The translations under genes and the position numbers were made by a program. A DNA stretch of 64,000 bases from Octopus vulgaris (lineage: Eukaryota). The number at the start of each line of letters is the position of its first letter. The first letter of the stretch is position 1. The DNA lies in the NCBI GenBank assembly GCA_951406725.2, contig OX597834.1, positions 1,984,001 to 2,048,000 of the forward strand, given 5' to 3'. Below are positions 5,601-56,878 of this stretch, piece by piece. Under the pieces are notes generated by a model that saw only the letters and a program-made list of their open reading frames with translations, searched no databases and was not told where the DNA came from.

Positions 5601-5849
5601 GTTGCTGATGGGCAGTGAATACAAAGGAGGTGGGAAAGATGTTGAGCTATTTATAGCTAGTTAGCTATGAAGTCCTGCGTTAGCCCATCATAAGTTATTA
5701 AGGCCTTAAGCTCCTCAGTTGTCTGAAGCCCATAAGAGGGAAATTAAGAATCTTTGTCAATGAAAATAAATTCATAATCAACCCAACTGTTGAGATATTT
5801 ATTTTTGAGTTTTGCATGGCAGCTTGAAGTCCTTGCTTTCAGATAAAGC

Positions 5850-30420: not shown

Positions 30421-31179
30421 TCTACACATAAAATACAAAATACAAAGTTATATCTTGATATCGCTAATGATAACAATACTCAAAATATATAACAGACTGG
30501 AATTGTAGGCCCGTCTCTTGCAATTTTGATCAATTGGATCTTGTCCTCCCTCTTGTATAGAAGTGTATGGCTGCAGCGAAATTCATTTTTGGACTTTCTT
30601 CTATCGAAGGCATTTTAACAAAAATGCTTCCGTAAAGACGGTGAAAATATTGTCAATTTCCCCATACAGGGACACAATTCAATTTTTAAACAATAACCAA
30701 AGCCCCTTCTCCGAAAGGGGAGGGTTACGGTTTACAATTATTTAACAAATGCAACACAACAACGTTTCCCTGACGAGGAACCAACAAATGTGATTACAAT
30801 AGTCAAACAGTAATAATAACAACAACAAACCTTTTTAATTTATCCCCATTTATGTGAAACCACTTGTTCAAGTCAGTGATGCAATTTTATATGAATTGTT
30901 AATACACACACACACACACACACATAATAAGGGTGAAAAATTGAATATTAATTTGATTAATATGAATTGAAAACCAGTGATATAGCAAATAAGACCATAG
31001 CGGATCTTCCTCTAGCAAAAAGGATGACCAGTATTAATGGCTCATCCCTGTTATATAAATACTTTCACTTTAATTGTTGCACACTTGCAAAGAGAAAGTA
31101 GGAGAAGTAATAGGAGTAAACCACTTGAAATGAGAGAGGGAAATCGTAAAATATTGAGTTTTCTCAAATGTTTGCTTAA

Positions 31180-31299
31180 TATGTATATGTATAAATATAT
31201 ATATATATATGTACGTATAAATATATGTACATATGTATAAATATATATATATATGTATATAATATATATATATGTATAAATATATATATATAACATATG

Positions 31300-31339
<40 letters not shown>

Positions 31340-31757
31340 CATGTATATATATATATATATGTACATATGTATATGTATAAATATATATATATATATATGT
31401 ACATATGTATAAATATATATATATATATGTACATATGTATATGTATAAATATATATATATATGTACATATGTATAAATATATATATATATATGTACATAT
31501 GTATATGTATAAATATATATATATATGTACATATGTATATGTATAAATATATATATATATGTACATATGTATATGTATAAATATATATATATATATATAT
31601 GTACATATGTATATGTATAAATATATATATATATATATATGTACATATGTATATGTATAAATATATATATATATATATGTACATATGTATATGTATAAAT
31701 ATATATATATATATATGTATATGTATAAATATATATATATATGTACATATGTATATG

Positions 31758-31798
<41 letters not shown>

Positions 31799-32057
31799 GT
31801 ATAAATATATATATATATATATATATGTATATGTATAAATATATATATATATATATGTATATGTATAAATATATATATATATATATGTACATATGTATAT
31901 GTATAAATATATATATATATATATGTATAAATATATATATATATATATGTACATATGTATATGTATAAATATATGTATATATATAAATATATGTATATGT
32001 ATAAATATATATATATGTATATGTATAAATATATATATATGTATATGTATAAATATG

Positions 32058-32137
<80 letters not shown>

Positions 32138-32243
32138 TATGTATATATATCATCATCATCATCATCGTATATATATATATATATATGTATGTATATATAT
32201 ATATGTATGTATATATATATATATATATGTATGTATATATATG

Positions 32244-32274
<31 letters not shown>

Positions 32275-32330
32275 ATATATATATATGTACATATATATGT
32301 ATATGTATAAATATATATATATATATATGT
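31180..32330. repeat. Compound TA-derived minisatellite, unit GTACATATGTATATGTATAA(AT)n
   Basis: Repeated unit with variable (AT)n length over about 1.15 kb; source of the spurious YI-repeat ORFs. Confidence 0.95.
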
Positions 32331-32725
32331 AGCTTTAGTCTTATTTTTATGGACTACCATATTAGCTTGGCGATAACTATTAATATTCAGTACCGCTGCC
32401 GTAATCTCCTTTAGAGAGACTTAGAAATTTTAATATTTCTATTTATGAAAACCAGTGGATGTATTCCATTGAAATTAGGTAAATAAATCCTTCGAACAGG
32501 CGGTTAGTAGCGACGCCTGCTGGGTCTGACTACTCTGCATTGATAAAGGGTAACAACCCTGAAACATGTCTGCAGATGTCTGACCCGCAAGGGGAAGTGG
32601 CTGACCTCCCCTGTTCGAAGGTTATAATGGACGCAGGTTCGCGATGGCCTCTTGGAGCTAATCAGCGGCAGCTTTAGTCTTATTTTTATGGACTACCATA
32701 TTAGCTTGGTGATAACTATTAATAT
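32331..32725 (+). mobile_element. Retrozyme / non-autonomous Penelope-type cassette, 339 bp monomer plus 56 bp terminal direct repeat
   Basis: 32331-32386 equals 32670-32725 with one mismatch; contains a hammerhead; (TA)n-rich tracts on both sides. Confidence 0.7.
32534..32576 (+). ncRNA. Minimal type I hammerhead ribozyme, U3-A8 core variant
   Basis: TCTGCA-TTGATAA-AGGG taacaa CCCT-GAA-ACATGT-C-TGCAGA: 6 bp stem I, 4 bp stem II, palindromic stem III, GUC site; predicted cut after 32570. Confidence 0.8.
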
Positions 32726-32740
32726 GTATATATATATATG

Positions 32741-32775
<35 letters not shown>

Positions 32776-33439
32776 CGCAGCGTACGTGCATAATAACTTC
32801 TTTATGTTTATCATATCACCACCCCTGCACGATGTCTTTAAACTATTTTCTTTCTTTCGCCATTGCTTCGTTGCCAAATTGTTTTGGCGCCTTTTTCTCC
32901 CAGCCTCTCTGATTCCTTCTCTCCCTCTCTCTCTTGGTCACTGCTTCTTCTCTGATTCCTTCTCTCCCTCTCTCTCTTGGTCACTGCTTCTGTCCTCGCC
33001 TTCCACCCTCCTTGGTCCCCTCTCTCTCTTAACCCCTTCTCTCTCTTACCCTCTTGCGACTTGCTGCCTCAGCCATTCTGTTGCCATCGGCTGCTTGTTC
33101 AACATGTGTCTTATCACCGAAAAGGTAATTATTTTTCCACGCTTGCTGATATTGTTTTTGTGCCTCTCTTTTTGTCTCAAAGCCGTAGGGCGCCTGTGTC
33201 ATCCATGTTTTTAACCGTTACTGTCTCCAAAAAAGATTTTTCGTTTCATGTTCGTCTCTGTTGCATTGCATTCTTTCCTTCTGTGGCTGGCTGATTCAGA
33301 GCGGATCTCAGAATTAAACAGCCGAAATCTGCGATGAGGGATGACTTTCTGACTGAAGAACGAAGGCTTTGAATGACCCGTTTGTCTTTTTGTTCGTCCC
33401 ATCGTGTATTTCACGTTATTTATTTACGTAAAGGTTTAT

Positions 33440-33571
33440 TATATATATGTATATATGTATATATGTATATGTATATATGTATATATATATATATGTATAT
33501 GTATATATGTGTATATATGTATATGTATATATGTATATGTATATATGTATATATATATATATGTATATATG

Positions 33572-33602
<31 letters not shown>

Positions 33603-33653
33603 GTATATGTATATATATATATATGTATATGTATATATATATATGTAAAGATG

Positions 33654-33684
<31 letters not shown>
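33440..33684. repeat. (TA)n / TATG compound microsatellite
   Basis: Direct reading. Confidence 0.95.
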
Positions 33685-34013
33685 CGTGACGCATATTTGC
33701 CATTTAAATATGGCTAACCCCTAAGGGTGGATGCTACTGTAGTTTGTAGCCCCAGGAAGATATCTCCTCCAGCTGGCTATAGACACACCATCTGTGTCCT
33801 CTCAGTATTTGTGAAGGGAAGTCATCCTCCCCGTCTTCAACTCATGATACACACGGACTCGAGTTTCAAGGTGTTTACCTCTCATCAGCGTGTGACAATC
33901 ATGGTTGTCGACGAGAAGTCAGCTCCCTTCACAAATACATATACTTTTTCCAGTGTCGATTGACACTGATATTGAAAAAGTGAAATCAAACAATGATAAA
34001 TCTCTGAACATGT
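33685..34013 (-). mobile_element. Hammerhead-bearing non-coding cassette in a (TA)n tract
   Basis: About 330 bp of complex sequence bounded by TA microsatellite; hammerhead at the tip of a rod closed by GTATTTGTGAAGGGA/TCCCTTCACAAATAC. Confidence 0.65.
33850..33894 (-). ncRNA. Minimal type I hammerhead ribozyme, canonical core
   Basis: Minus strand CACACG-CTGATGA-GAGGT aaac ACCTT-GAA-ACTCGAGT-C-CGTGTG: all core nucleotides present, palindromic stem III, GUC site; predicted cut between 33856 and 33855. Confidence 0.9.
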
Positions 34014-35007
34014 TATATATATATACATATGTGTAATGTATACACATGTATATTTCTAAGGTAGCCCATGGGCATCGTCACCTCATTTTACATGTCCCTG
34101 TAAATTTTAAAAATATAATATAGAAAATATATAAAATTGAAAAATTTAAATTATTTAAATTTAAAATAAAAATTATTAAATTATATTTATAATTTGTTTA
34201 AAAATATATATAACTATCAAAAAGTATTAAAAAGTTTAATATACATAAATACAGATATATACACTTTGTATATATACATTATATATACATATTTATATAT
34301 CGAACACTCACACACATATATAAATGAACGCAATGAATATCTGATTCATAATATTTGTTCTTATGATTGTGTGTTGGTGGTGGCGTGTGGTGATGATAAT
34401 TCTCCCTATGAATGCAGACAGATACATCAAAGAACGCCGTCTGACGAACTTTACATTAAATAATGGGAATGGACTTGTCAAAGTTATAAATGAAGGGGAG
34501 TTAGGGGGGAATGGAGGAAATAGCGTGAGTGAGGAAGATGGCCCCTAGCAACCACACCTTTTAAGATAGGGATTTCTAAGGTAGCCCACGGGCATCGTCA
34601 CCTCATTCTACATGCCCCTGTAGATTTTGGAGCGAATCGGACGGGACGTAGTGGCATTGAAAGCGATCCAAGCGGTAAAAACGCATTTCAGTTTTATATA
34701 TAGAGATATATATATTGTTCTGCACACTTTTATTGATTTCAGTTATTGGGCCGCAGCCATGTTGGTGCATTGCTTTTTGGCCATTTCATTATTTTTATGA
34801 AAATCCCAGATTTATTTTTACTTTGGTACTTTTATTTATTGGACAACTTATCACTTTGACAGAACACTCATCTTACACACACACACATATTTATATAAAC
34901 ATGGATACATGGAAAGTATATGAGTAGATAATCATGTTGTCTCTTTCCGTGTTCATTTCTTTCATATTATCATACACTAATGTGCATGTATATAGATTTA
35001 TGCATAC

Positions 35008-35052
<45 letters not shown>

Positions 35053-37133
35053 TATATCATCATTGTTTAACATTTGCTCTCCCTGCTGGCATGGGGGCAC
35101 ATTTTATTCTTTTCTGTGCCACCATTTATCTCTCTTCATCCTCCCCTGAACCACTTCTTATTGACATCCTTACCTCATTCTTAATACTCACTCATACTTA
35201 CCAGTCACTATCCTTGCCTTTGTTCACCACTTATTACATTCACTCCAGTCTACCTCTGACCACCTCCACTCTTATCACTGTATACCTCTCGTTCTTCACT
35301 CTTCCAGCTTTTACCCATCTACTCCCACCTATCTTCTATCTCTCATCCTTCCCCTTCCTACTGTACTATAATATGTGCTCTTCTTTACCCTTCCAGCACT
35401 GCCAGTCATCACCCACTCTCCCCTGAGTGACTTTTATTCACATCCATCCCTCATTATCATCATCTCCTCCTACTTAGCTCGTTTATCATTGATCACTTTT
35501 ACACCCTTGATCACCCCTCACTACATTCACCCCCAGTCCCTTCTATAACCATATCTCACCCATCCACCCTTCCTGATCTGTCTCCATACTCCCTCTTCCC
35601 TTTAGGGTATGCTGTCTGATTCCCCATACCCATTTTCAGCTCGACCTACCCTTATTGAATGCAGGCCAGCCATGTATCTCCTCTACAGCAACAAACCTGC
35701 TACTCTTTCCTCCATCAACCCCTCAACCCAAGCTGCCTCCTTTTCTGTTGTACTCCCACTCAGCTGGAAGAGGAGGATCTTGGTCGTTTGAGTTAAAGCT
35801 CACCTCACTGGTGCTACTGTAAAGTGATTGGTGTTAAGAAGCGGATCCAGCCATAGAAACCATACCAAAACTAAGACATTGGAGCATATGTGGAGCCCCT
35901 GACTCATTGGATGATCCTGTTGAAGTCCTCCAACGATGACACTTGCATTGAACATGGCGCAAAGGCAAGCAAAATCACACACACACACACACACATGATG
36001 GACTTTGGCAGAGTTAATATCGACCACACACACACACACACACCTGCAGTTGAAGACCACTTGACAACAAATGCACTGCAGAGTGGGATTGAACTTGGAA
36101 GAACATAGTTACAAAATATTTCATCAGTGCCTCAGTGTGTATTTGTCTAACCCAGTGGTTCCTAAACCATTTCAGGCTGCCTGCTCCCTTTGACACCCAG
36201 GCCACATTCCTAGTGTCCCCACCCCAACCAACCATCACAACCATAGACCACTTTCTGAAGCAAATTCAAAGCAACTCTATTTCACAAATGTAACTTAACC
36301 TAATGAACCCATTATTTCATTGTTTTTACATGAATTGCTATCCCATTATTGCCCCCTTGGAAATTTCCGCCACCACCACCCCCAGGCGGCGTGGCAATAC
36401 CGCCCACTTTGGGAACCACTGGTCTAACCCATATTCAGTTTGGGAAAACACATACGAAATGAACAAACAGATGTACGGTACCTTCTTTCCCATCTGTCTT
36501 ATTAAAATCTCACTCATTTGTATGGGTTTGTACACACACACACACACACACACATAGTGGAAGCTCCTTATTATGATAATGAATAAGGGTGTCAAACAGT
36601 TATTGTTATCAAAATTAATTGTTCTCAAACTCTTTCTTAAAAATAAATTAAAACTGATCTGCTTAATCAGTTCCAGATATTGTGTGTAACCGACTGTTAT
36701 CTATCTAAATGGCTCCCTCTCAAAGTGAGCGCAGAAACTTCCCAATGTATGGATACATGTGTGTATGTGTGTGTGTGTGTGTGCCTTCAAATCAAACTCC
36801 ACTATGTATCAGATAGTTATCTTGTTGACCCTTGAAGAGCAGAAATGATAGGGTAGCATTTGAACTCAGGACTTGGAGAGGGACAAAACTAAGACACGAG
36901 TCTGCTACTCTACCATGTTTGCCACTCTCACTATTACAGTCTGTGTGTGTGTGTGTGGCTGTAATATAAACAATATTCACATTGATCACAAGTTCTGTCA
37001 GGCTTCCAACTAACAATTAACCATCAATCAATGGTGAATTAATTTGGAGAGACAAAGAAGAGATTAGTAAGAACAGCTTTAATAATACTTCATCAGACCA
37101 CTGTCTCACATCATTGTTACATATACTACATTG

Positions 37134-37560
37134 GTTCTACATCATAGCCAGTGCCATCACTGTTCTACATTATAGCCAGTGTTCTGTGTCTTTCTCCTAC
37201 CATCCCTGGTAAATGCATTAGTTCTACATTATAGCCAGTGATCATTCTGCTACCTTCACTGTTCTACATTGTAGCCAGTGTCATCACTGTTCTACACCAA
37301 AGCTAGTGGTCTATGTCTTTCTCCTACCATCCCTGGTAAATGCATTGGTTCTACATCATAGCCAGTGATCTGTCTTTCTCCTACTTTCACTGTTAAATGC
37401 ATTGGTTCTACATCATAGCCAGTAGTCAGTTGTGTGTTGTTGCCACATCTTCACAGTTCTACATCATAGCCAGTTACCTTTTGATATGTGTCTTTGCCCT
37501 CTCATCAAAGTATAATACTTCCTTCATGTGAAATGCATTTGTTCAATATTGTAGCCAGTG
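37134..37560. repeat. Interspaced array of nine 20 nt repeats GTTCTACATYRTAGCCAGTG
   Basis: Copies at 37134, 37162, 37221, 37261, 37289, 37348, 37405, 37456 and 37541; 127 bp higher-order period. Confidence 0.9.
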
Positions 37561-37667
37561 ATGCATTGTTGTGTGATGTTATCTCATAACACTAGAAGGA
37601 GAAATAATAGAAATAAGCAGTAGGCTTTTGGGAGTTTCTTGTGAATTGGCTGCTCCATATGTAAATA

Positions 37668-38161
37668 GGCACAGACATGGCTCTGGGGTGAGATGTTTGC
37701 TTCCCAACCACATGGTTCTGGGTTCAGTCCCACTGCATGGCACTTTGGGCAAGTGTCTCCTATAAGCTTGGGCCAACAAAAGCCTTGTGAGTGGATTTGT
37801 TTGACAGAAACTGAAAGAAGCTCGTCATCGGCACAGGTGTGGCTGTGTGGTAAGAAGCTTGCTTCCCAACCAACATGGTTTTGGGTTCAGTTGCACAACA
37901 TCTTGGACAAGTTTTACTACAACTTTGGGCCTACAAAACCTTGGAAATGGATTTGATAGATGGAAACTGAAAGAAGCCCATCATATATATTGTATGTGGA
38001 TATAAGCGTGACTGTGTGTTAAGAAGCTTGCTTCCCAACCACATGGTCCTGGGTTCAGTCCCACTGTGTGGCATCTTGGGCAAGTGTCTTCTACGATAGC
38101 CTTGGGCCGACCAAAGCCTTGTGAGTGGATTTCGTAGACGGAAACTAAAAGAACCCTATCC

Positions 38162-38228
<67 letters not shown>

Positions 38229-38430
38229 GTGTGTGTGTGTGTCTGTATATGTTTGTTTGTCCCCCACCATCGCTTGACAATCGATGCTGGTGTATTTATG
38301 TTCCCGTAACTTAGCAGTTCAGCAAAAGAGACTGATGTAATAAGTACTAGGTGTACAAAGATAAGTCTTGGGGTTATTTGTTCGACTAAGGTGATGCTCC
38401 AGCATGGCTACAGTCAAAATGACTGAAGCG
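37668..38430 (+). mobile_element. Tandem tRNA-derived SINEs (family 2)
   Basis: TGGTAAGAAGCTTGCTTCCCAACCACATGGTTCTGGGTTCAGTCCC...TTGGGCAAGTGTCTT...GAAACTGAAAGAAG x3; dispersed copies near 395, 29795(-), 40495, 43095(-), 48790(-) and 53040. Confidence 0.85.
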
Positions 38431-38559
38431 TGCTCCCCCCACCAACACCACTTGACGACCGGTTCAACAAAAGAGACGCAGAGAATATGTATCAGGCTTT
38501 AAAAAATAGGAACTGGGGTCAATTCTTCCAGTGTGGCTGCAGTCTGTTGATTGATACCA

Positions 38560-38592
<33 letters not shown>

Positions 38593-38944
38593 GCATTTCT
38601 CCTTGTTTTGATATAGGATGATAGCTGTAAATGAGTGTCACCAACCTACAAGCAATGTCCTTCGTTTCCAATCTTCTTTGAAACACTTGTCTGGTGATGG
38701 GGGAAATATTCCATTGCTTGGAAACGAGTGAGGGCTGGAGACAGGAAGAGCATTGAGCTGTTGAAGCTATACCTCCACAAATTCCATCCAGTCCCTACTT
38801 AAAATGGATGTCCAAAACGATGAGGATGACTTACAGGTAAAGGGCTAAGCTTGGTCTGGATGTACAAACCCCTCCTGAACGGGACACCCTCAGGCCAGAA
38901 TCACAAAATATATCGACAAACAACTGAATGCATCTGTTTCATTG

Positions 38945-39265
38945 TGAAGCCATGTGGCTTAGTGGTTGGGGTATTTGGCTCCTAATCATAAGGTTGTGAG
39001 TTCAATTCCCAGTAGCAACTTGGTTCTTTGAGGAAGACACTTTATTTCATGTTGCTCTTGTCAGCTGGCAGAAACGTGTAGTATTTGTACTTCAAAGGGG
39101 CAGCCTTGTCACATCCTGTATTACAATGAGTCTCCCTGAGAACTATGTTAAGGGTACTTGTGTCTGTGGAGTGCTCGACCGCTTGCACTTTAATTTTACT
39201 AGCAGGCTGTTCCATTGATTAGATCAACCGGAACCCACATCATTGTAATTGATGGAGTGTCAGCC
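38945..39265 (+). mobile_element. tRNA-derived SINE (family 3)
   Basis: A box TGGCTTAGTGG, B box GAGTTCAATTCC, TTGAG.AAGACACTT core; relatives near 7580, 12510, 44778 and 56145. Confidence 0.7.
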
Positions 39266-39439
39266 AACCAATTTGGTTTTACTGGTTATGTTTTCTGTTA
39301 AAGTAACAACCTAAAGATCTATGAAGTTAAAATGTCACATTAATTGTTCTTCCCATGACATCCTGCCAGTTTGTGATAACAGTTTATCTAACCTTGATGT
39401 GACACTTCCTCTCTACATTTATAACAGCGTCAGAAAATG

Positions 39440-40380
39440 AAGTCAGAACTGCCACATATGCAACTAAATGTAATAAATGCTCATGCAGAGGAAAATCAAA
39501 ATGCCTGTTGATGAACTTCTGTATGAGTACGAATCTTGTATATAAATGTACTGTACACACAAAAGGGAGACTGTACATTTACATTGGGGTAACGGCTGAT
39601 TCATTCAGGAATTATCACAACCATGTCACCAGCTTCAAGAAAATCAACTAGAGGCATTCAACATCTTTGGCTGATTTTGTGTGGCAACTTAAGGAATATA
39701 AATTTAAATATGATCTAACTTGGTTCATAGTAAGGCACGCACAACCATACAATATTGTTTCCAGGAAATGCAGACTCTGCTCCGAGGAATCCTTGTCTAT
39801 TTTGTGGAGCAATGAGAAGATCATTAATAGAATTTCTGAAAGACTCTCCAGATGCTTACATGCTTATAAATATCCTTTCATACCATGCAGTGGGGATCAA
39901 TTGAAGTAACTGTTAACCAAATTAATAATCATAATTTACCTTAGGGTATGGCTGAATTCTATTGAACTCCATCCTCCTCATTCTTATAAACACTAAATAG
40001 CTATTTAATTTGCTGTGTGAGCATATGTGCACCAAATCACGTGTGTGTGTGTGTGTGTGTATGCTTGTATCTTCATGGATGTTTTGTACAAGCAAGTCTA
40101 TGTGCAGTATACAATGTAAGCAAGGGCATTTAAACATCCATACCTGTTAACGGTTATATTTAATACAATTTTCACTCTATTGTGTATTCATTACTTTTTG
40201 CATTTGCTATTTATTATTGACCTTATATGAGAACGAAACTGTATCCTATGATTTGTTGCTTTTCTATACACAGAGAAGATATCTTGCTGAACAGTTGTTA
40301 TTTTAATGAGATACATCTTGTAATCACCTGAAGAGACACATCTACACCATCAGATACTCCTAAACCAGTTAAATATCCTA
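39440..40380 (+). mobile_element. Penelope-like element (Naiad/Chlamys-type) GIY-YIG remnant with 3' region
   Basis: Single frame KCSCRGKSKCLLMNFCMSTNLVYKCTV...YIGVT...YHNHVTSF...STSLADFVWQLK...KCRLCSEE...INRISERLSRCLH with one TAG; decayed hammerhead-like motif at 40325-40372. Confidence 0.8.
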
Positions 40381-43300
40381 CCCACACGGGATCAATGCTA
40401 GATGGATGGAAACAGTAGTAGTAATTAATAAATATTCTTGTATCTGCCATCTTCCATTTCTCTCTCTCATTAATCGTTTGTGTGTGTGTATGCAGTCATG
40501 GCTGTATGGTAAGACGTTTGCTTTCCAACCATGGGCTCTATGGTTTAGCTGTGATGTACAAGACATTGGGCAAGTGTCATCCACTACAGCCCCAGGTTAA
40601 CCAAAGCCTTGTGAGTGGAGTTGGTAGACAGAAACTAAAAGAAACCTGTCGTGTGTCTGTCTGTCTGTCCCCACCACCACCACCCTTGATAACCAACGTT
40701 GGTTTGTTTATGCCCTCATAATTTAGCACTTCTGTAAAAGTTACTGATGAGTAAACTGGCCATATCCAGTCAACATATTCTCCCTGTTTTATGTTCAAAC
40801 TGACCAGATATGACTCCTCACACCTACCCAACAATGTCATTCCAAACTTAACAGTTATCTCCTAAAATTCTCAAAGCTGTCAGACAATACATGGCTAATT
40901 CTGAACAATGGGAGTAAATAAGGATTACATGGGACTGAAGAGTTGGTTCTTCCTTAAGCAAACTAATTTTTGAGTTTGGAAGAATTCGTCAAATTGACAG
41001 CTTTGTATCTTTGTCATTTTGTTGTTTATATCATCATCATCATTCAATGTCCAGGATCCAGTCAAAAGCATGGAGATGATGATGATCCATGGTGGGACGG
41101 TGATCCTGTCAGCATTATGCTCCACTCCCTGTTTTGGCATGGTATGCCATTCCTAATGCCTCATTGACATATTTTAAACTAGATACCTTAAAAAGTTGGT
41201 CAGTCTTGATCAAGCAGACATGCAATTAGAGGCACTCCAACCATGACCACTCCATCTTCCAATCGGGGTTTAAGATCTTGATAGGGTGACCTGTATACCA
41301 GGGACCTTGCTAGGTAGACTTGTGTGTTGTTAGGGGTTTCCTGTGGTGATATATATTTTTATTGGTTTGGGTCTTCTCAGAAAAATCTATAGGAATCTCT
41401 GATGTGGAGGAAGAGACAAAGTGTAGCAGAAATGGTAGATTAAATACAAGATAATGATGAAGTAGTTCAAAGGTTTTGTTGTTTGAAGTAGGTTTAATTA
41501 GAACAATTTAATTAATATTGCTTGATAGAGCAACTGGTTTGTCAAGTTACAATGATGTCTTGATTCAAAGTTTATTTCATACTCACACAATTGTACCCCA
41601 CCTCCTCTGCTAGTATTCTAAGTTCATGCTGTCATTGTCAGGCACTCCCCCCTCCCGGCCATTTATTGCAAAATTATCATACAGGAGAGGGAAATAAGAT
41701 TCTGTGGTGTGCATGATGTTTAACTATAAAACCAGTTCTGATCTATTTGACATATCATCAAAGACATTCCAATTACAACCATATCATCTTTATTTTCAAG
41801 CAAAGCTCAATGGGTTTAAGAGAGATTTGACTGCTATGTCTAGCAAATTTAGAGGATCCTTTGCTAAGTCAAAGTGTTGTGTGTTGGACTGACATTTCCA
41901 CGTTGTCACTTGGAAACTAAAATAAAGTTACAGACCCAACTTGCTGTGAACTTCCCTTTGCAAGGCTCTAACATTCAATTGTTCCAGCTACAGAGCGGCA
42001 CCTTGTAGTCCAGTCAGGGGCAAATTGTGACCCATGGGACTTTATGAATGGCATGCCAAAATTTTTTTTATAGTAGTGAATCTTGCTTGATGACGAACCA
42101 AGTCTTATTTGCCCTCTTCTTTCAAATGGTTGTTGATGCCTGTTGTAGATTATTAGCCCTAGATTCTTGCAGGTGCAAAACCCTTAGTGACCCTTAATGG
42201 CTCCAACCCAATGGATAATAAGAAGGAACTGGATCCTTTGATATAGGAAGGCAATTAAGATTTCTGGTTTCTTTCATACATTGTTAATTAATAATCAATT
42301 CGTTGACCATCCTGAGATTCATTCTGCTTTTCTCATCTCCTGAAATTGATAAAAACAAATACCAGATGTATATTGGGGAGAGAGGGGTTTGTCTCATTGA
42401 TATTTTTTTTTTTCCTTTCCTCCCTTTGTATGAGCTGGTGACTCTGCAGCTCCAACGAATCAATAACTACAATAGTATTGAACATACGAGAGCTGTGTTG
42501 GTTCAATACTAATTATTGATTTGTAGTTGTTGTTGTTTTCTCTGATATCGAATTATAAACACACAACCCAACTTGCCTCTTCAGCTGTCATGTTCTGTTT
42601 ACTAAAACCGCTGGCTCCTAAAGCCCTGACAGCCACTGATGAAATATATCACCACCACCTTCATCAGCGTCATCATCATCAAGCCAGCTTCCTATGCTTG
42701 CATCAGTTGGATGCTTCTCACACTCTCTTGTCACTTGTTATAGTCCTTCATAATGCAGCACGCAGTAACAGGCTTGAAAAAAAAACCCCACCTACTTTCG
42801 TTGTTCCATATATAAAATGACCAAAAATGACCGAGATGGCGAGTTCCCTGTTGCTGAGATTGTCTTTTATTCTTTCACTTGTTTCAGTCATTTGACTGTG
42901 GCCATGCTGGAGCTCTGCCTTTAGTCAAGCAAATCAACCCCAGGATTTGTTCTTTGTAAGCCTAGTACTTATTCTATCAGTCCCTTTTGCTAAGTTATGG
43001 GGATGTAAACACATCAACATCAGTTGTCAAGCGATGTTGGTGGGACAAACACACTCACAAATGCACACACACACACACACACACACCTATATGACGGGCT
43101 TCCTTCAGTTTGCGTCTACCAAATCCACTTACAAAACTTTGGTCAGCCCGAGGCTACAGTAGAAGACATTTGCCCAAGGTGCCACACAGTGGGACTGAAT
43201 CCAGAACCATGTGGTTGGGAAGCAAGCGTTTTAATCACACAGCCACTGATGTAGATACGTAACTGAACATGATTTCTGTATCACGGGTTTTCAGCCTGTG

Positions 43301-46300: not shown

Positions 46301-47309
46301 TTTTTTTTTTATCCCTTCTAGAGACTCCCTTTGTTTTGCTGTCATGTCAGCATTAGATTACTAATACAAATAGGCAGCCCACAGTTGTTAACACTACCAA
46401 TATAGTGATGTAAGAATTGAAACAGTAACATCACCCCATGGTCACTGCCACCATCACCACCACCAGCTGGCAGGGTTCACGCTGGGTTCTTGTGGCAGAT
46501 ATTTATGCTGGGCATGAACGACATCAATGTCACCAGATTATAAACAGGCCCTGGAAATGGACACTACTGCCCCACCCCCATCTTATTTTGCATAATATCT
46601 AAAAAGTCAGTTCATATTTATATTTTAATCTTTTACGACTTTCACTGGGATTGAACTTGTGTGAACATTTTTAACACTTTATCACACCCGTCTACCACAT
46701 ACATCCTTAATTATGTTTCTTTTCATAGCCTAATTGTAGAGAGAAACCAACTTATGTGGTTGCTAGGAACATAATTTCTAAGACCCAGTCTTCAGTAATC
46801 ATGCTCCTGTAATTATGTCCATGTCTAACCAGTCTCACATCAGTAAATGTCCTTTCCAGTTTGTTTATTAGTAAATTCTGAAACTATTTCTGATAAGACA
46901 TTCCATGTTCGTCAACTGCATCATTACTGAGGGCTTGAAACCAGTTCCTACTCACTGGTTCTCAACCATTTTGTTTTTCTTTGGACCCCTTTACTGTCTG
47001 TTTTACTTTACACAACCCCCATGGTCATTTTGCTGCATACGGAATAAAAATCTTACTCTATTTTTATTATTAAATATTTGGAATTGCTTAAAAAAAAAAA
47101 TTCAAATCTTTTTGTATTGTGGGAGTAAAATCAATTTATTGCAGATAGATTTTGACAACAGAATCTTCTTCTGTGGACTCTGGTTGATAACCACTGATGT
47201 GACCAATAGATCTATAGCTTCTGATAAGTTGATCTCTGGCCTTTGTCTTTACTTGATGAGTTGATGGTCATACAAGACATTCTGTGGTTCATGGTGATGG
47301 TTTGTATGT

Positions 47310-47350
<41 letters not shown>

Positions 47351-48743
47351 GGACCGTCAGGCCCTTGTCCTAATCTGTCTCTCCACTACTCAGTCTATTT
47401 GTTCATTTTTTGGTTGTTTCTCTTGACTGTGGCCCCTGGCATGTATAATCCAGGCTTGAGCAAGCTGTATTGAGAGGCTGGTCACATGTGATATGGCTCA
47501 TCTTTAGATGGGCCATGCTACTCAAAAAGAGTTAATCTTTTGTTAGGCATACCATTCAGAAGATCCTGTGGGTCACAAGTTGCCCCATGACTACTGGAGA
47601 CAAAAACCAGAATCTCTTTTGACAGAATAGAGTGGGAAATGTCTGTGTCCACTGAACCCTCTTGTTCATTTATTTTACTGTTTAATTAGAGATGTTGACA
47701 GTCTTGTTCGGAATGTTGTTGCTATTTCCATTTTGGTGGTTTATTTAAACCCAGGTCAGATCTGACACTGAAAGACGCTCCAGTCATGACCATCCTTCTC
47801 TTTGTATATTAGTTGTGATTTTGAAAGGTAGCTGACTGTATATTAGCTCCCTTGTTGGCTGTTCAGTGATATGTTGGTTCTCTCTCTCAACAATTTACAT
47901 ATTCACTTTTATTCTGGTTGATGATGATGATGATGATGTAAGTAGGAATGTAATCTGACCAGAATGTTAAATTATATTGCAGATTTAAAGAAAGCAATAG
48001 ATAGACCATGAGAGGGAGATTGGGGGGGGGCATAGTTTGTGACTGTTAAGAGATATTGGTAGGTTTGTCACACTGGCACTAAATTCTAATTCTCTCTCAT
48101 TCTGCATATCTATAATCACACACACTCTCACTCACTCTCTCTCTCTCTCTCAGTGTTATATGACTATCTCCTTCTCTCTCCTGTATTTGCCTTTGCACAG
48201 TGGTTCTGTCTTCCTCTCTCCCAAACTGAAGAAATCATTCAACCATAACTTCTATGCCAATTAGCCATGCTCCATTACCTAGAATGTTGCCATGGTTATG
48301 GTGATGTTGCTAATAACAAAGAATGGGCAATATAGAAATTGATGGAGATAAAGACAGTGATGATTATGATGATGATGATTATGATGATGATGGTTATGAT
48401 GATGGTGGTTATGATGGTGGTTAGTTGGCTGATGAGGAAATGTCATCTTAGTGTTTTATTTCACACACCTTTATGGAAATGCTTCTGTTGCTGTTAGTCT
48501 TTATGGACTTAGGTGTGTGTGTGTATAGTCTTTAATTCTTTTACTCGTTTTAGTCATTTGACTGTGGCCATGCTGGAGCACCGCCTTTAGTCGAACAAAT
48601 TGACCCCAGGACTTATTCTTTGTAAGCTTAGTACTTATTCTGTCAGTCTCATTTGCCAAACCGATAAGTTTCAGGAACATAAACACACCAAGTGATGGGG
48701 GTGGGCTGGACAAACAGACACACACACACACACACAAATACAT

Positions 48744-48789
<46 letters not shown>

Positions 48790-50181
48790 CTGGCTTCTTT
48801 CAGTTTCCATTTACCAAATCCACTTACAAGGCTTTGGTTGGTCCGAGGCTATAATAAAAGATACTTGCCCAAGGTGCCATGCAGTGAGACTGAACCTGGA
48901 ACATTGTGGTTGGAAACCAAACTTCTTACTACACAGCCACGCCTGTATATATATATATATCTTGCTGTATGTATGTGTGTCTGTACATGTGTGTGTATAG
49001 AAAGAATCATTGTTTTTCTCCCACTGATTGTGGAGTAGGCTATTGCTGCAAATTTATACATTATCTTTTATTAATTACATAGTAAGGAGTTCAATGGCTG
49101 AGTGGTTAGGCACATTGTTGTGCCTTCCTCTCACTGGCTCAGTCCACCTAGCTGCAAACAGTCAGAAGTGGATATTCTAGAACACCGAGGAATTTGTAGT
49201 GCTTCTGCAATGTTTGTGTCTTCTCCAAGGAACCGTTTCTTACGATGTTCTACTAACAAGGTGGGGATGAGGAGGGGGCATAGATTTTATGTTTCACCCC
49301 CTCGACTATTCTCTGACCCAGTGTCTTTTCAAGTACTCCGTCATTTGTGATTTCATTAATTTGTATAATAAGGAAAAAATTGTTGACATTTGGTTAACTA
49401 ACTTTGTCCTTTTAAAACTGTTTTTTGGATGACAACCAAACTAAAATAGTTCTGATGGAAGGTTTTAATTTTAAATATAAGTAGGAGATTTCGGTTGTGG
49501 TGGTCTTGGGTGGGTTGGTATGAAAGCACTTGCAGAAACTATTGAATAAATACTATGACTGATTCATGCTAACAGTTCCACTCACAATCAGAAACACACA
49601 CACACACACACACACAAGAACAATCCCACATGCTATCACGCATCTACTCACCAATAGTTACATACACACACATGCACAAAGATCCTCATACTATCACACA
49701 CACACACATCAGTCTATGTATTATCACATGCACACCGGTGCACACACACACACACACACAGAGTTCTAGATACTCGCACTCGCTGCTAACCTGGTCTTTT
49801 CTTCCTCTTTATCATCTCTGTCACCCATTCTGGTCAAAGTGACCAAATCTGTCCACTCCAGCCAGACAATCCAGCCAGACTTTCACACTCTACACAAATA
49901 TCTAGAAATATATCTCTCAATTCATTTACTGTTGTCCTAATAGGAAGCTAGGGGTGAAGATGGGTAAGTTACAAAACATTTCTACACACATCATAAAGCT
50001 AATCCCTTTAGAATGCTTCTATTAACTGTTGATTCCAACCCACCTCAGACCATCACTCCTGGTTCTATGATACAACCTTCCAGTTTATGTTCCAAACACC
50101 AACTAAAAAATTATTCTACAAAATTCTTCATCCTTTTCAAAGTTAATTGAAACAGTGTACGTCAACAAAAATACGGTAATG

Positions 50182-50315
50182 AAAAGCCAGGAACCTTTCA
50201 GCATCCTCTTACATAGTGTTATAACACTTTTAATCCAAACACACTTTAGTGAATGCCTATATGGCAGAGAGAGAGAGAGACATATGAATTTATATAGACG
50301 TATAAATTCATATGG

Positions 50316-50358
<43 letters not shown>

Positions 50359-50438
50359 ATATAGACATTCACTAAAGTGTGCTTGGATTAAATGTGTTAT
50401 AACACTATGTAAGAGGGTGCTGAAAAGTTCCTAGTTTT
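50182..50438. repeat. Long near-perfect palindrome
   Basis: Arms pair outward from CATATGAATTTATA-tagacg-TATAAATTCATATG through (GA)n/(TC)n to AGGAACCTTTCAGCATCCTCTTAC / GTAAGAGGGTGCTGAAAAGTTCCT. Confidence 0.92.
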
Positions 50439-50623
50439 AAGGGTATCACAAAAGGCCTGGCTGGAGGCTCAGCCGTCTGAGTCCTTTTACAGGGTTTAGA
50501 AAAACTGAAGGACCACTGTAATGTGTGAATCTGAGAGGAATATGTTGAATAAATCATAATTAACACATCCTTCTCCTGTATTTTCTTTTACCCAAAGCCA
50601 GGAACTTTTCAGCACCCTATCGT
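50410..50623. mobile_element. Mariner-type MITE
   Basis: TIRs GAGGGTGCTGAAAAGTTCCT / AGGAACTTTTCAGCACCCT; second partial copy at 28925-29131. Confidence 0.7.
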
Positions 50624-50630
50624 GTGTATC

Positions 50631-50663
<33 letters not shown>

Positions 50664-50698
50664 AAAAACTTTTGGGTTTTTTTTTTCTCTCTTTTCAG

Positions 50699-50773
50699 AC
50701 CATAAAGACATCCACTGAGGAATTGCTCTAAGGTCTTCTCCATATCTTGGACAAACTTATTGATTCTTCAAAG
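50699..50773 (+). other. Candidate non-coding (5' UTR) exon, possibly of Rab14
   Basis: Strong acceptor TTTTTTTTTTCTCTCTTTTCAG, donor AAG|GTAATT (alternative GAG|GTAAGA at 50846); stops in all three frames, no ATG. Confidence 0.45.
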
Positions 50774-51239
50774 GTAATTCTTTTACTTGTTGATAATTCT
50801 ATTTAGAATTTCTGAAATCTTTTCAGTTTCCAGTTAAAATTTGAGGTAAGAAATATTGCCCTGCCCCCAAACTAAACATTGCATAATGATGATGAGCAGA
50901 TTTTAAAAAATATATATACATACATATATATATATATATATATATGAAATACGACTCTACTCCCTAGAATGAAGGCAGAAAAGATATGCAGTGAAAAATA
51001 TCTGGAAAATTGTGACCTGTGATGTATAACAGCATCTGATAATCTGGTCAATCATGTAAGTGATGTTGCCGTGTGTGTGTTGATTACTGACTCTTTTGGC
51101 TGATCTGTCCATGTTGGACAATCCTACAGTCACACACACTATCAGTTGTGTTGCTGTCTTGTACACAGTTGAACACACCCATACATATTTAAGAACTGGG
51201 TTTATTACAGGTATGACCTGCTTTTTCTGTCATGCTAGT

Positions 51240-51685
51240 ATCATCATCGTCCTAGTCAAACATCCTTTCTGGCGTGGGGTGGACAAGCTGCCCAAGCTGC
51301 ATGGTTTCTGTGGCTGGATGCCCTTCCTAACGCTAACCACTTTACAGAGTGGGCACAGGGTGCTTTTACACAGCTCAGGTCAGGGTGCTTATTACGTGGC
51401 ACCATCACCTACAAGCCCTCAAGGTTACAGATGCTCAGCTGGAGAGGGATGCAGGGGACAAGCCTCTGTGCAAGAACAACCACGCTTTTACTTAGCTTGA
51501 TGTGTCTTTTCAAGCAGAGCAAACCATCAGGAGCCTCGGTCCCCTGTCGTCCCCTCTGTGAATCCCAATGTCCATAGATCCTTTCCCATCGCTTCATCCT
51601 ATGTCTTCCTGGGTCTACCCCTTCCACATGCTCCGTCTATAATTTGAGATTTGCTCCTCTTGATGCAGCTGTCTTTGTTCACATG
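51240..51685 (-). mobile_element. RTE LINE 3' end with UTR
   Basis: DSCIKRSKSQIIDGACGRGRPRKT followed by the AGGAAGGGCATCCAGCC 3' UTR motif, shared with copies near 18775, 22450-22830, 53780, 54410, 55430 and 62505. Confidence 0.75.
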
Positions 51686-51694
51686 CACGTATGA

Positions 51695-51750
<56 letters not shown>

Positions 51751-54700
51751 AGAAAAAGAAGGTAGGATTTGGATAAAAGCTATTTAGTGTTTTCATCCTT
51801 CTCAGGGATTCATTATGAATGATTTCTTGTAGAAAATTCAGCCCTTTTATAGATGTGTGTTAGTTGAAAAAAAAAAATCTGCAGTTGAATTTGTTTTTTT
51901 AGATTTTGGAAAGAGGATGAGTCGAGAGTGATTATTTGAGATGTTTTTTCTCATTTTCAGCCTCTGTGTGTGTGGTGAATATATACATACACGCACACAT
52001 GATAACTCTGTATGTGTATGTACAACTCATTAATATATTCAAGCCCATACACACACGTATTATGTTGGCATGCAGCTTTGCAGCTGTCTCGAGTTAGATT
52101 TGCTGTCCAATACAGTTCCGCTCCATTGTCTTCAATAATAAGAAATATTGAAGGGAGAAACCTTAAGTTAAAATCTTCAAACTAATTCTAAGGATAACCA
52201 CAAGGAACTCTCTGTGCTGTTGCTAGAAATAGCAGCCAGTGGTCTTGTGTAAGGACCCTGCTATGTTAAAGATAAAGACATACTGTTGTTGTTGGCTTAG
52301 TTTTGCATTTGAATAAAGGATAGGATGGTCATTGCTGGAATGTCTTTGATCAAATGACTGCTGGACCAGGAGTGACTTGGGGCTAAAGAACAAAACCACT
52401 AACGTATGCTGGAAATTGTTCTTAGCCAAATGTTCAATATCAGCTTCCTTTATTACCAATCACTGCCTGCACCTCACACACACACACACACACACACACG
52501 CACAGACACACCACCTTCCCCTCCCCCCACCATTGGCTGTGTTCTCGTAACTGTGTCAGGCTCCGGCTGCTCACTCCTCTTCCAGTATGTTCTCTGCTGC
52601 TCCTGTTGTGCTTCTCTGTTAATACTTCACTGCAGTGTCTGTCTTTGAAATGTCAGGATTGTGTATCACCCTTTTACACCACCACGTCTAGCACTTCCCT
52701 AGCCCCACGCCACCTCTCCACTGCATCACCACTCTACTGCATCCACTACAGCACTCAGCCATTCTAACATCATTTTGGCATCCAGGTTTTCCCATGTCTG
52801 CATCATTGGATTGGGAGGCTTTTCTCTCCTCCTCCTCCTCCTCCTCCTCCTCCTCCTCCTCCTCCTTGTAAAGCCACATATTCACCACCCCCACCACCAC
52901 CACCCTCATCTCTTTCATGTGGTTCACCTTCCTCCTAAGCTCAGCTCTCACCTGTTGATTAAAGGATCGCTTTATATGGAGGGGGGTGGGCAGACTGTAT
53001 TGAGTACTTTTATGGTTGTGTTGCAATCTTTTATTTGTGTATGTGGTTGTGTGTTAAGAAGTTTACTTCCCAACCACATGGTTCTGGGTTCAGTCCCACT
53101 GTGTGGCACCTACAACACCCTTAGGCTAACGAAAGCCTTCTGAGTAGATTTGGTTGATGGAAACTGTACGAAGCCTGTCGTGTGTGTGTGTGTATTTATT
53201 TGTGTCTCTTTGTCCCCGACCACTGCTTGACAACCATTGTTGGTGTGTTTACATCCCTGTAACTTAGCAGTTTGGCAAAAGACACCAATAGAATAAGTAC
53301 TAGGCTTACAAAGAATGTCCTGGAGTCAATTTGCTCAACTAAAGGCAGTACTCCAGCATGGCCACAGTGAAAAATGACTGAAACAAAAAAAAAAGAATAA
53401 AAGTATGTATATATATATTGGTGTATTGTTTCTGTTTGTAGTTTTCCATCTCATTTGTTGCTGTTTTTGTTTGTCCGTCATCTCAGAGATCTTTCTTCTG
53501 CCAGAATGAGAGACAATTGGGGGCAGCTGACTGGACACTGGATCTGTTTTTGGTGACAGTACTTTTTGGCACTGGGGGGTACAGAAATATGCACAAAAAG
53601 GGGAGAGAGAGAGAGAAGCATTAGAACAAGGAAAACAGTGAAATGTCTGGTGTCAGATCAGTGAGAGGAAGAAGCTGGAACCAAAATGTCTGCTGAGGAT
53701 AAGTCTACCATGTTCGTTTCTCTTTTTTCCATTAATCACTTTCATGTTCCATTTTGATTTTTCATCACAAACCTACACCATCATCATCATCATCATTTAA
53801 TGTCCCTTTTTCTATTCTGTCTTGGGTTGGATGGTTTGACATGAACCAATAAGCTGGAAGGTTGTGCCAAGCTCCAGTGTCTGCTTCGGCATGCATTTTA
53901 CAGCTGGATGCCTTTCCTAACACATACAATGTCTACAGAGTGGGTTGGGTGCTCCAAGGATACTATTAATTACTGAATTAACCATTGTTTGGTACTAGGC
54001 AAAGTGAATATACAAGTGAGAATATATATTTTTGTGTAGCAAAAAAAAAAAGAAGAAAAAAATGGTAATGCAAGGGAAACAACTCATTGAAATGAAGTGC
54101 TTTTAAAATGATAGTAAAAAGTTGCCATACTAACCCAGTTGTTGGTGTTCATAGTTGCTTCAATCGATCATCTGGTGATGCATAATTATGAAGTAGAAAT
54201 TTTAAAGAATGTCTACAGTCAGTGAACATTTCAGAACATACATTCAGTCTGTTGTCATTATGAAATAATATCAATAGTTTCTCCTTTCTGTCCTTAAGAT
54301 TTGCTGTGACTGAAGTTCAATCATTGGGGTTTACATATCACACATTGTGTTTCTTTGCTAAACCATACATTGGCCAATGGAGACTTTTCCTGGATGGCTA
54401 ACCTATATCATCTCCATCATCGTTTAATGTCCATCTTCCATGCTTGCATGGGTAGGGCAGTTGACAGCCAGCCAGGTAGAAAAACTACCTTAGGCTACTG
54501 TGTCTGTTTTGGCAAGGATTTTATGGCTGGGTGCCCTTCCTAACACCAACCACTCCGCAGAGTGGACTCAGTGCTTTTTATGTGGCATTCTGAACTGTCC
54601 ATAGCAGTGTATCACTAATGAGTTGTTGTCTCGCTCTCCACTAATGTTCTGCAGACTATTTTTGACAATTGTCCAAAATTGACAGCCAGGAATTCCTAGT

Positions 54701-54942
54701 AAGCATTTACAGAGTTTAAGCTTCCAGGAAACAGGATGGAGGGGGGTAGACTGGAAGCTGTTAACTGAAATAACTAGGTTAGGACATAATAAAGCGCTCA
54801 TGGTAAGTTTATGCAGAGTTTAGATAAGAATGTTTGAATGAGTGTGTATACATCTGTAGTACGTATAGACAGTGTGTATATATATATATGTGTGTGTGTC
54901 TTCTGTATTAAATAGAGAAATGGTGATGAGTGATAATTTTGT

Positions 54943-55353
54943 AAATGATAATAATAATAATAAGCTTAAGGCTTATAAACGTTTACCATGTATTGACTAA
55001 AGGAAATAGTCTAATATTGGGGCATATAAACCCTCAATGGAAAAAAGAGGGTGTCAGTACACATGGGCCTCGAACCCACACCTCTTATATTTGCAATAAG
55101 TGTGCTGACCATTACACCAACACTATGAAATTATAGCTCTTAAATCTAATGGAAAGAAGTGAGTGGGTAAGATAGTGTAATAGTTAGCACATTTATTGCA
55201 AATATAAGAGGTGTGGGTTCAAGTACCTTGCATATTAACACCCACTTTTTTTTCTTCCATTGAGAACTTACATTCGCCAAAATAAGACTATTTTCTTTAA
55301 CCAATACTCGATGATCACTCATAAGCTTTAATATTGTAATTATTGTTATCATT
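54943..55353. repeat. Inverted pair of tRNA-like elements, about 175 bp arms and 57 nt spacer
   Basis: GAACCCACACCTCTTATATTTGCAATAAGTGTGCTGACCATTACAC versus GTGTAATAGTTAGCACATTTATTGCAAATATAAGAGGTGTGGGTTC. Confidence 0.85.
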
Positions 55354-56462
55354 CACATATATTATGTTGCTACAAAGCGAGAAACCTCAATACAGTAAAT
55401 GATAATTATAAGGCACTTGTGCAGTCATGCATAAAAAGCAACCATGCTGGTGCTATGTAAAAAGCACCCAGCAGACACTCTGTAAAGTGGTTGGCATTGG
55501 GAAGGGCATCCAGCCATAGAATCCAAGCCAAAACAAACACCCGGAGCCTGGTGCAACTTTGTGGCATACCAGCTTCTGTCATACCAGCATGGAAAACAGA
55601 CTTCAAATGACCAAGATGATGATCTAAATATCTTGGACTAAAAATGTTTTCATCTTTAGGGAGAACCATTAGTGAGTAACAAATGGGGACAAGAGTTTTA
55701 AAGAACAAAGAAATTGTTTGATAGTCAAGATTTTCAGATTTTAGAGGAGAGTCCATTTCACAAACATCACTGGTTGTTGACGATTTTTTATATATATATA
55801 CATGGTTATCGATTTGTGTTACAAGATTCCTGATGTGAAATTGCATGTTGAAACCAATATTGTTGTATTTCAGGTCGGACCCTTTTTTTTTTTTTTTTTT
55901 TTTTTTTTCAGAAAAAAATGACCGTCTTTAAAGAGATGGCCAGATAACCAAAGAGATGGTGTTGTGGATTTCCACTTCGGCGTCTGAAACTCAGAGTTTT
56001 ATCTTGACTATTGAATAATTGTAACATATTATTTTATAGATGAATTTCCTCTATTTACATAATATTGAGGTCTCTGTCTTTCTTTCTTTTGTTATCTTAT
56101 CGTTTTTACCAATATATATTTATATATATATATAATATGGTTAAGGTGCATAGCTCAGTGGGTCGTGTCAGGCTCACAACTATAATCATAAGGTATTGAG
56201 TTCAATTCCTGGACTGGGCTGTGTGTTGTTCTTGAGCAAGACACTTCATTTCATATTACTCCAGTTTACTGTAGCAAGGAGTTGGGATGTCACTGGTGCC
56301 AAGCTATATCAGCCTTTCCCTTAGACAACAATGTTGGTGCAGAGAGGGGTGGCTGGTATGCATGGTCAACTGCTGGTCTTCCATAAACAACTTTGCTCAG
56401 ACTTGTGCCTAACTTTCTAGGTGCAGTCCCATGGTCATTCATGACCAAAGGGGGTCTTTACC

Positions 56463-56499
<37 letters not shown>

Positions 56500-56515
<16 letters not shown>

Positions 56516-56768
56516 ATATTAGGGAATAAATCCAAATTTACAGGGAAAAATCAGATTTAGGATTGAATCCAATTTTATAGTAAAATATTATATAATATTA
56601 ATTAGAGACAAAACCACTATTATGCAAATCAAACAAAGAAAGACTTAATCCAATACATAAAAAATTTTATATAAATTAAATTAAATTAAATTCGCCACTA
56701 CAATTGTTTCGTGTCTCTTCTAAGGACATTCATCAGGTGGTTTTCAGATCTTCTATTCAATTTTAAGT
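56500..56768 (-). mobile_element. AT-rich hammerhead-bearing cassette in a (TA)n tract
   Basis: Flanked by (TA)n at about 56467-56500 and 56769-56790; contains the hammerhead at 56695-56740. Confidence 0.6.
56695..56740 (-). ncRNA. Minimal type I hammerhead ribozyme (A.C mismatch at base of stem II)
   Basis: Minus strand CCAC-CTGATGA-ATGTC cttagaaga GACAC-GAA-ACAATTGT-A-GTGG; palindromic stem III, GUA site. Confidence 0.8.
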
Positions 56769-56878
56769 TATATATATATATATATATATAGGCTTGTTTC
56801 TATGTTCTTGACAACAAAGGCCTGGGGCGTTTGAGATTTGAGTTACATTGAGAAAGAAACATTAAAATATGTTGATGG

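Follow-up and report, generated by a model that had tools for sequence, protein, structure and literature searches.

In a window of 64,000 nt from Octopus vulgaris (assembly GCA_951406725.2, contig OX597834.1, positions 1,984,001 to 2,048,000), three short cassettes, here called F1, F2 and F3, each carry a type I hammerhead ribozyme next to TA-rich DNA. We consider it very likely that all three were inserted at (TA)n by the reverse transcriptase (RT)/GIY-YIG proteins of Penelope-like elements (PLEs), F1 and F2 being related retrozymes and F3 the intron-less leader of a Hydra-type PLE, made from spliced sense RNA. We also lean towards a broader reading, in which this PLE would routinely reverse-transcribe spliced sense RNA. 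Priming in the leader would then produce the more than 100 start-site-anchored mini-copies, splicing in the 3' untranslated region (UTR) would produce shortened variants bearing an open reading frame (ORF), and intron retention would depend on the RNA primed and on selection for the promoter, not on an antisense template.

Hammerhead cassettes in the window

In the window, a descriptor scan of both strands identified three type I hammerheads and no more. The mean over 100 dinucleotide shuffles was 0.14 hammerhead matches of any kind, and no shuffle gave one with a palindromic stem III of at least 6 nt. The original prediction of three type I hammerheads with palindromic stem III was thus borne out, as was the embedding of the cassettes in (TA)n, since each one adjoins TA-rich arrays. 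The features are as follows.

31179..32328, no strand: TA-rich array 5' of F1
32331..32725, plus strand: F1, candidate retrozyme insertion, slightly more than one monomer of 361 nt, this copy lacking 22 nt; tail-less 3' end
32540-32570, plus strand: F1 hammerhead core (TTGATAA, stem II, GAA, ACATGT), predicted cleavage after C32570
32722..32773, no strand: (TA)n at the F1 3' end
33440..33684, no strand: TA-rich array at the F2 3' end
33683..34017, minus strand: F2, candidate retrozyme insertion covering 335 nt of the 352-nt monomer, truncated at the 5' end; its 3' end has no tail and meets (TA)n
33856-33888, minus strand: F2 hammerhead core (CTGATGA, stem II, GAA, ACTCGAGT), predicted cleavage after C33856
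56467..56502, no strand: (TA)n at the F3 3' end
56500..56771, minus strand: F3, predicted spliced leader of an autonomous Hydra-type PLE (exon 1, exon 2 and tail)
56500..56584, minus strand: F3 tail, about 80 nt between two fixed 3' ends
56699-56736, minus strand: F3 hammerhead core (CTGATGA, stem III ACAATTGT), predicted cleavage after A56699
56750..56771, minus strand: F3 exon 1, 22 nt long, joined to exon 2 between 56750 and 56749
56769-56790: shorter TA run adjoining F3

The F1 core TTGATAA is the U3-A8 variant, and the F3 hammerhead starts 13 nt past the splice acceptor. The usual G10.1-C11.1 pair is absent in all three hammerheads, F3 having an A-C mismatch. The proposed check with Rfam hammerhead models was negative: a scan of the window returned 148 matches at E<=5, with no hammerhead family among them.

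We then searched the 2.8 Gb assembly. The proposed copy-number check showed that all three cassettes are multicopy, with 354 exact hammerhead patterns for F1, 55 for F2 and 148 + 52 for F3, while reversed-pattern controls gave 0. First-look candidates (F1 2764, F2 2717, F3 799) are not copy numbers. Among the 55 exact F2 matches, the window form of stem III, ACTCGAGT, is a minority (10/55), the other 45 having ACTCGGGT, which is self-pairing through G-U.

The distinct palindromes had been proposed to restrict dimerisation to members of the same family. On paper, this holds among the three cassettes: the computed stem III homoduplexes of F1, F2 and F3 have energies of -4.6, -10.7 and -6.4 kcal/mol, against 0 to +0.9 for heteroduplexes. 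However, stem III ACATGT with the TTGATAA core is also found in an autonomous Neptune-type PLE with intact 781-aa RT+GIY-YIG ORFs. The palindrome is therefore not a family-unique code.

PLE-type insertion anatomy

We investigated the ends of the insertions in the 30 best loci per family, arms being counted after duplicate removal. In every family, the 3' ends are fixed at two positions, whereas the 5' ends are scattered. One of the two fixed sites terminates 42 of the 47 F1 arms, 41/46 F2 arms and 58/59 F3 arms. These fixed ends run into (TA)n in 24/42, 33/41 and 48/58 cases, respectively, whereas alternating TA occupies 2.9% of the positions in the window and 6.0% of those in the distal flank. 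Among arm pairs joined 5' to 5' (not deduplicated), one tailed end is combined with one tail-less end in 11/14 pairs for F1, 12/17 for F2 and 17/17 for F3, the last count being biased because the main arm was picked with its tail. An optional 3' tail (45-80 nt), 5' truncation, a partial tandem or inverted 5' arm and a microsatellite target are present in all three families. Fixed tailed and tail-less ends with inverted arms are described as a PLE signature (PMC8557442), and PLE proteins are reported to nick AT-rich DNA and to start RT at two internal RNA sites, which produces the tail (PMC11167929). Penelope-type mobilisation into (TA)n, as first proposed, is thus well supported for F1, F2 and F3 by end anatomy and TA targets.

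At subfamily-diagnostic sites, paired arms differ less than random pairs (F1 4% vs. 41%, F2 12% vs. 39%, F3 3% vs. 17%). The two arms share diagnostic bases and therefore come from one source; separate RNA templates for the two arms were considered and rejected on these differences.

F3 and its Hydra-type parent element

In 10 of the 20 fetched long-ORF loci, the F3 unit is found directly before the reading frame of an ORF of about 840 aa. The F3 tail is 5' UTR in full-length copies, about 50 nt before the ATG, and long copies also reach upstream into the end of the GIY-YIG ORF. The F3 5' ends cluster at one point, and no short tandem F3 was found in 30 loci. Because there are no head-to-tail non-coding monomers and the sequence runs into the ORF in long copies, F3 is not a non-LTR (long terminal repeat) retrozyme.

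The 840-aa ORF contains the motifs KWK, DKT, YRDD (at 359), CxCx5C, YIG (at 733), CxxC and CxH, and no GxKF. DKT, the CxCx5C linker and the nuclease CxxC and CxH match the definition of the Hydra clade; the RWK motif of this clade is KWK in the protein itself and reads RWK in the family profile. This profile aligns with Pfam-confirmed RT+GIY-YIG ORFs (E ~1e-19 for two targets). A PDB sequence search with the protein gave 0 matches, and a pairwise BLASTP against the Neptune-type ORF was not significant. The named relatives of the protein come from Argonauta hians and Octopus bimaculoides. The parent also has a hammerhead in its pseudo-LTR (pLTR) and (TA)n insertion. Judged by motifs and family profile, the F3 parent is an autonomous Hydra-type PLE. 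Since F3 adjoins the ~840-aa ORF, whose motifs fit the Hydra clade and whose profile aligns with PLE ORFs, we interpret F3 as the pLTR end plus the tail, which is also 5' UTR. The idea that all cassettes are non-autonomous retrozyme families therefore fits F1 and F2 but fails for F3, the leader of an autonomous element.

The hammerhead-to-hammerhead unit of the parent measures 5.5-6.3 kb in L325, L341 and L343. In L337 (G000:C10:100765700-100775200), a near full-length Hydra-type copy, both pLTRs are spliced from a second donor (see below) and the unit is 2.98 kb, the usual Hydra size. L325 contains at 3410-5929 a Hydra-type ORF with a long Asn-rich insert between RT and nuclease; Asn-rich inserts are reported in Adineta Penelope ORFs (PMC3846280). 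A decayed Hydra-type GIY-YIG fragment with 35% identity to the F3 parent was also observed in the window (39478-39873, plus strand).

F3 copies lacking an intron at exact GT-AG borders

In long copies, the 27-nt 5' motif of F3 is followed by GT about 1.1 kb upstream of the hammerhead, and TTTTTAG precedes the hammerhead exon. The window F3 joins both exons exactly: the missing intron is about 1.1 kb long, with exact GT-AG borders. The 148 and 52 exact F3 patterns of the genome are spliced and intron-retaining junctions, respectively. The extent of exon 1 was determined in 47 spliced arms from 40 loci, among the first 100 listed of the 148 matches. The donor-side match does not exceed 27 nt in 45 of these 47 arms (mode 22), and the spliced 5' ends stop at the initiator (Inr)-like TTCACTT, whereas unspliced copies continue upstream for hundreds to thousands of bases. 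A cap-derived G at the F3 5' ends was considered and rejected, as this G is mostly templated by the inverted arm.

A second donor, G/GTAAGT, lies about 200 nt after the stop codon; 14 matches from 10 places, in several subfamilies, connect it with the acceptor used by the first donor, and the nuclease end is directly upstream in 5 of these 14. Of 30 ORF-end loci, 28 were parsed and 3/28 were donor-2 spliced; one of the unparsed loci coincides with a spliced match. One subfamily has a base change that places GTAAGT 4 nt earlier, and junctions were found at both positions. The shifted junction thus tracks the shifted donor, which a DNA deletion would not do. As a separate observation, the donor-2 segment is repeated about 9 times with a 38-nt period in L162 (1-340).

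Among 171 arms, 87 were donor-1 spliced, 11 donor-2 spliced, 66 unspliced and 7 unclassified (three of these with the shifted-donor junction); the 7 were left out of the splice-state tree. The six commonest hammerhead signatures are common to spliced and unspliced arms, and for 76 of the 98 spliced arms there is an unspliced arm that differs by at most 2 substitutions. The intron is kept in 9/10 upstream pLTRs of full-length copies, and none of the 118 junction matches (overlapping loci counted more than once) showed a spliced leader running into the ORF. The exact junctions, the ends at one presumed start site and the alternative donors at one acceptor together indicate that this PLE likely retrotransposes spliced sense RNA.

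F1 and F2, two related families

The F1 and F2 monomers (361 and 352 nt) are contiguous head-to-tail and too short to hold an ORF; the PLE protein matches at their loci are located in the flanks, outside the monomers. The F1 copy of the window has a 56-nt terminal repeat (32331-32386 and 32670-32725). Consecutive units with complete hammerheads were found for F2, as pairs 352 nt apart on C1 and C8, and for F1, as a pair on C2 (locus L006).

The cassettes had been described as unrelated in sequence, which proved wrong for this pair. The nhmmer alignment of F1 with F2 is colinear and covers about 300 nt (E ~5e-9 to 1e-7), and blastn aligns 55 nt at 76%; on these alignments, the two are distant homologues in one clan. 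More diverged clan members were identified in loci L183, L214, L222, L238 and L301. The self-pairing stem III variants of the clan are ACATGT, ACTAGT, ACCGGT, ACTCGAGT, ACTCGGGT and ATCCGGGT, while self-pairing is incomplete in one relative with ACTCAGGT. K-turns flanking the F1/F2 hammerhead were also considered and dropped, as the CTGA/GATGA motifs are not kept in relatives. From their sequences, F1 and F2 fit animal non-LTR retrozymes, and the families are apparently new, repeat databases being outside this comparison.

Proposed mechanism and alternative explanations

In the F3 family, a promoter in the pLTR would start the RNA about 27 nt before the donor, and the leader RNA would be spliced. 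RT would prime at the leader's own start sites and run about 190 or 270 nt to the RNA 5' end, through the uncut hammerhead. Such leader-primed products would be short promoter-less copies, i.e. dead ends, while priming at the 3' pLTR would mostly copy unspliced read-through or circular RNA, so that promoter and intron are kept. F1 and F2 would be transcribed as multimers or circles and borrow the protein of a PLE, their hammerheads cutting weakly, as dimers. Sense-RNA priming of PLE RT has been demonstrated in vitro, and PLE insertion does not require hammerhead cleavage (PMC11167929).

Several observations weigh against this interpretation, besides the biased F3 pair count. The locus samples are best matches or pattern matches and not random draws, and the F3 start site is deduced from DNA 5' ends. 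The sequencing runs listed for F2 include none of RNA, and the contigs aligned with F3 leave its hammerhead and exon junction uncovered. One spliced copy (L141/L173/L199), from outside the sample of 47 arms, reaches about 360 nt beyond this presumed start. A Pfam search of the 840-aa protein itself found no RT, and RVT_1 was found in 1/40 members of its protein family. No autonomous PLE with an F1- or F2-like pLTR was present among the PLE loci fetched, the best 150 of 6136 and the best 150 of 17993 first-look candidates being scored in this partner search. Finally, the splice-state tree has 38 label changes vs. 52 +/- 3 in shuffles. It is thus less mixed than random. Part of the spliced copies may therefore have descended from other spliced copies, and an intron-less sublineage (L347, L348, L353, L356) seems to have spread.

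This tree is also in line with a different history for F3, in which one DNA deletion or a single splicing event would have founded a separate non-autonomous family that then spread independently. The excess of spliced arms (148 vs. 52) and the AAAACC variant, which is mostly spliced (15 vs. 2), agree with this explanation. However, 38 label changes are found instead of the single one expected, and the six signature groups contain both forms. Moreover, the exon-1 variants correspond to donor variants that belong to different subfamilies, one acceptor is joined to two donors and to a shifted donor, the junction overlap is just 1-3 nt, and short F3 copies never stand in tandem in the 30 loci. We therefore regard an independent family as improbable and, as the sole origin, as largely refuted. 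It is still harder to believe that the spliced copies are processed pseudogenes made from PLE transcripts by the protein of a long interspersed nuclear element (LINE), PLE proteins never copying spliced RNA. LINEs do copy spliced RNA (PMC5860796), and octopus genomes are described as LINE-rich (PMC13282606). But the spliced F3 copies terminate at the two internal start sites of the PLE, lack poly(A), lie in (TA)n and have tailed and tail-less inverted arms, and both arms are spliced in 12/12 classifiable spliced pairs, with no mix of spliced and unspliced arms.

For F1 and F2, the hammerheads could be inactive relics, the units being shortened PLE derivatives or satellite units from linear read-through multimers rather than retrozymes passing through RNA circles. 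We consider this possible, though rather unlikely. It would agree with the missing G10.1-C11.1 pair and with insertions that traverse intact hammerheads, with no clear 5'-end pile-up at cleavage sites. In addition, 1/9 Xenopus retrozyme dimers cleaved in vitro (preprint 10.64898/2026.07.22.740005), and the reported independence of PLE insertion from cleavage (PMC11167929) points the same way. The cores are nevertheless intact in 27/30 and 30/30 top matches of F1 and F2, and the clan keeps the core through a compensatory C3-G8/U3-A8 change, together with self-pairing stem III variants. Circular fold energies of the monomers are also far lower than in mononucleotide shuffles (-125 vs. -85 +/- 5 and -129 vs. 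-83 +/- 5).

Comparison with known systems

The general system has been described in animals before: retrozymes are known, as are Hydra elements that target TA and, in octopus, a Hydra family whose hammerhead is a different one. The F3 parent resembles the Hydra clade PLEs described by Craig et al. 2021 (PMC8557442) in its C-terminal GIY-YIG, its DKT, CxCx5C, CxxC and CxH motifs, its hammerhead, its (TA)n target, its tail and its tandem and inverted copies. It differs by KWK instead of RWK, by the Asn-rich insert and by a longer unit (5.5-6.3 kb, vs. generally <3 kb there, a descriptive and not diagnostic value). The same paper catalogues Hydra-1_Obim, a (TA)n-targeting and hammerhead-bearing Hydra element of Octopus bimaculoides, from which F3 differs in its hammerhead. 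It also describes PLEs as retaining introns, with a significance stated to be unknown, whereas F3 has many exactly spliced copies.

Drosophila virilis Penelope, with its leader intron (PMC2377424, PMC4209133, PMC3846280), resembles F3: its pLTR holds both the start site and a 5' UTR intron, the intron end adjoins hammerhead helix I, an Inr-like TCACT is present, and both spliced and unspliced RNA are expected. In the F3 family, by contrast, spliced products are integrated. An antisense template was proposed to explain PLE intron retention (PMC3846280); in the F3 family, the spliced head-to-head arms instead indicate a sense template. The human L1 SpIREs (spliced integrated retrotransposed elements; Larson et al. 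2018, PMC5860796) are likewise copies of spliced element RNA that lost the promoter and are likely dead ends. L1 primes at the 3' end, whereas F3 would result from priming inside the leader, which gives copies of 190-270 nt whose 5' ends lie at the presumed start. Poseidon PAc of Anolis (Frangieh et al. 2024, PMC11167929) has in common with F1-F3 two internal RT start sites that define the tail, AT-rich targets and uncleaved RNA as substrate; that work was done in vitro and did not address splicing, and the tails of F1-F3 measure 45-80 nt.

F1 and F2 resemble the animal non-LTR retrozymes (Cervera and de la Pena 2020, PMC7229834; Li, Clavereau and Pollet, preprint 10.64898/2026.07.22.740005) by their non-coding tandem monomers of 350-360 nt, within the range of about 170-400 nt, type I hammerhead, palindromic stem III and link with PLEs. 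They show the tail, inverted arms and TA targeting directly, being known here from DNA alone, and differ by the lack of a pLTR parent among the fetched loci. Cephalopods are unmentioned in the main text of PMC7229834, and the species covered by the preprint are vertebrates, insects and a coral. The link between PLEs and retrozymes was earlier argued mainly from co-occurrence and pLTR similarity; the F1/F2 junctions show PLE mobilisation of cephalopod retrozymes directly.

In the literature searched, repeat databases and several supplements being outside its scope, we found no published report of integrated spliced PLE copies. The searched text of the octopus repeat library paper (PMC13282606; sequence files outside scope) contains no hammerhead, retrozyme, Hydra or intron. 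In the F3 family, the start site, splice sites and RT start sites could be mapped from genomic DNA. As this family is young, with intact 840-aa ORFs and spliced copies beside unspliced ones, intron retention becomes countable and testable. If our reading is true, intron retention in PLEs would come down to which RNA gets primed and to selection for the promoter.

Other elements in the window and in the genome

The Neptune-type PLE (L151-L157, e.g. L153 2342-4684 and L154 768-2204) is young, with many intact 781-aa ORFs and the TTGATAA/ACATGT hammerhead. In a different frame, a second ORF of up to 479 aa lies upstream and overlaps the first, and the 3' UTR contains repeats rich in CCAAT/TGACG-like words. 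A decayed RT fragment resembling the Neptune-type PLE ORF (30% identity) is present in the window at 3271-3798 (plus strand).

In 343 loci, 251 distinct-context hammerhead matches were found, mostly F1-F3. Further hammerhead families have other self-pairing stem III sequences (ACATATGT, ACTCAGAGT, ACCGGT, AGTACT, ATCACGGTGAT and others) and were observed in L017, L158, L169, L174, L182, L232, L234, L242, L243, L319 and L377. In the window, the Rfam scan also gave weak tRNA-like matches at 55055-55124 (minus strand, 29.5 bits) and 55166-55237 (plus strand, 23.2 bits), possibly a tRNA-derived short interspersed nuclear element, and several microRNA models matched below threshold in a long hairpin around GA/CT repeats at 50242-50379.

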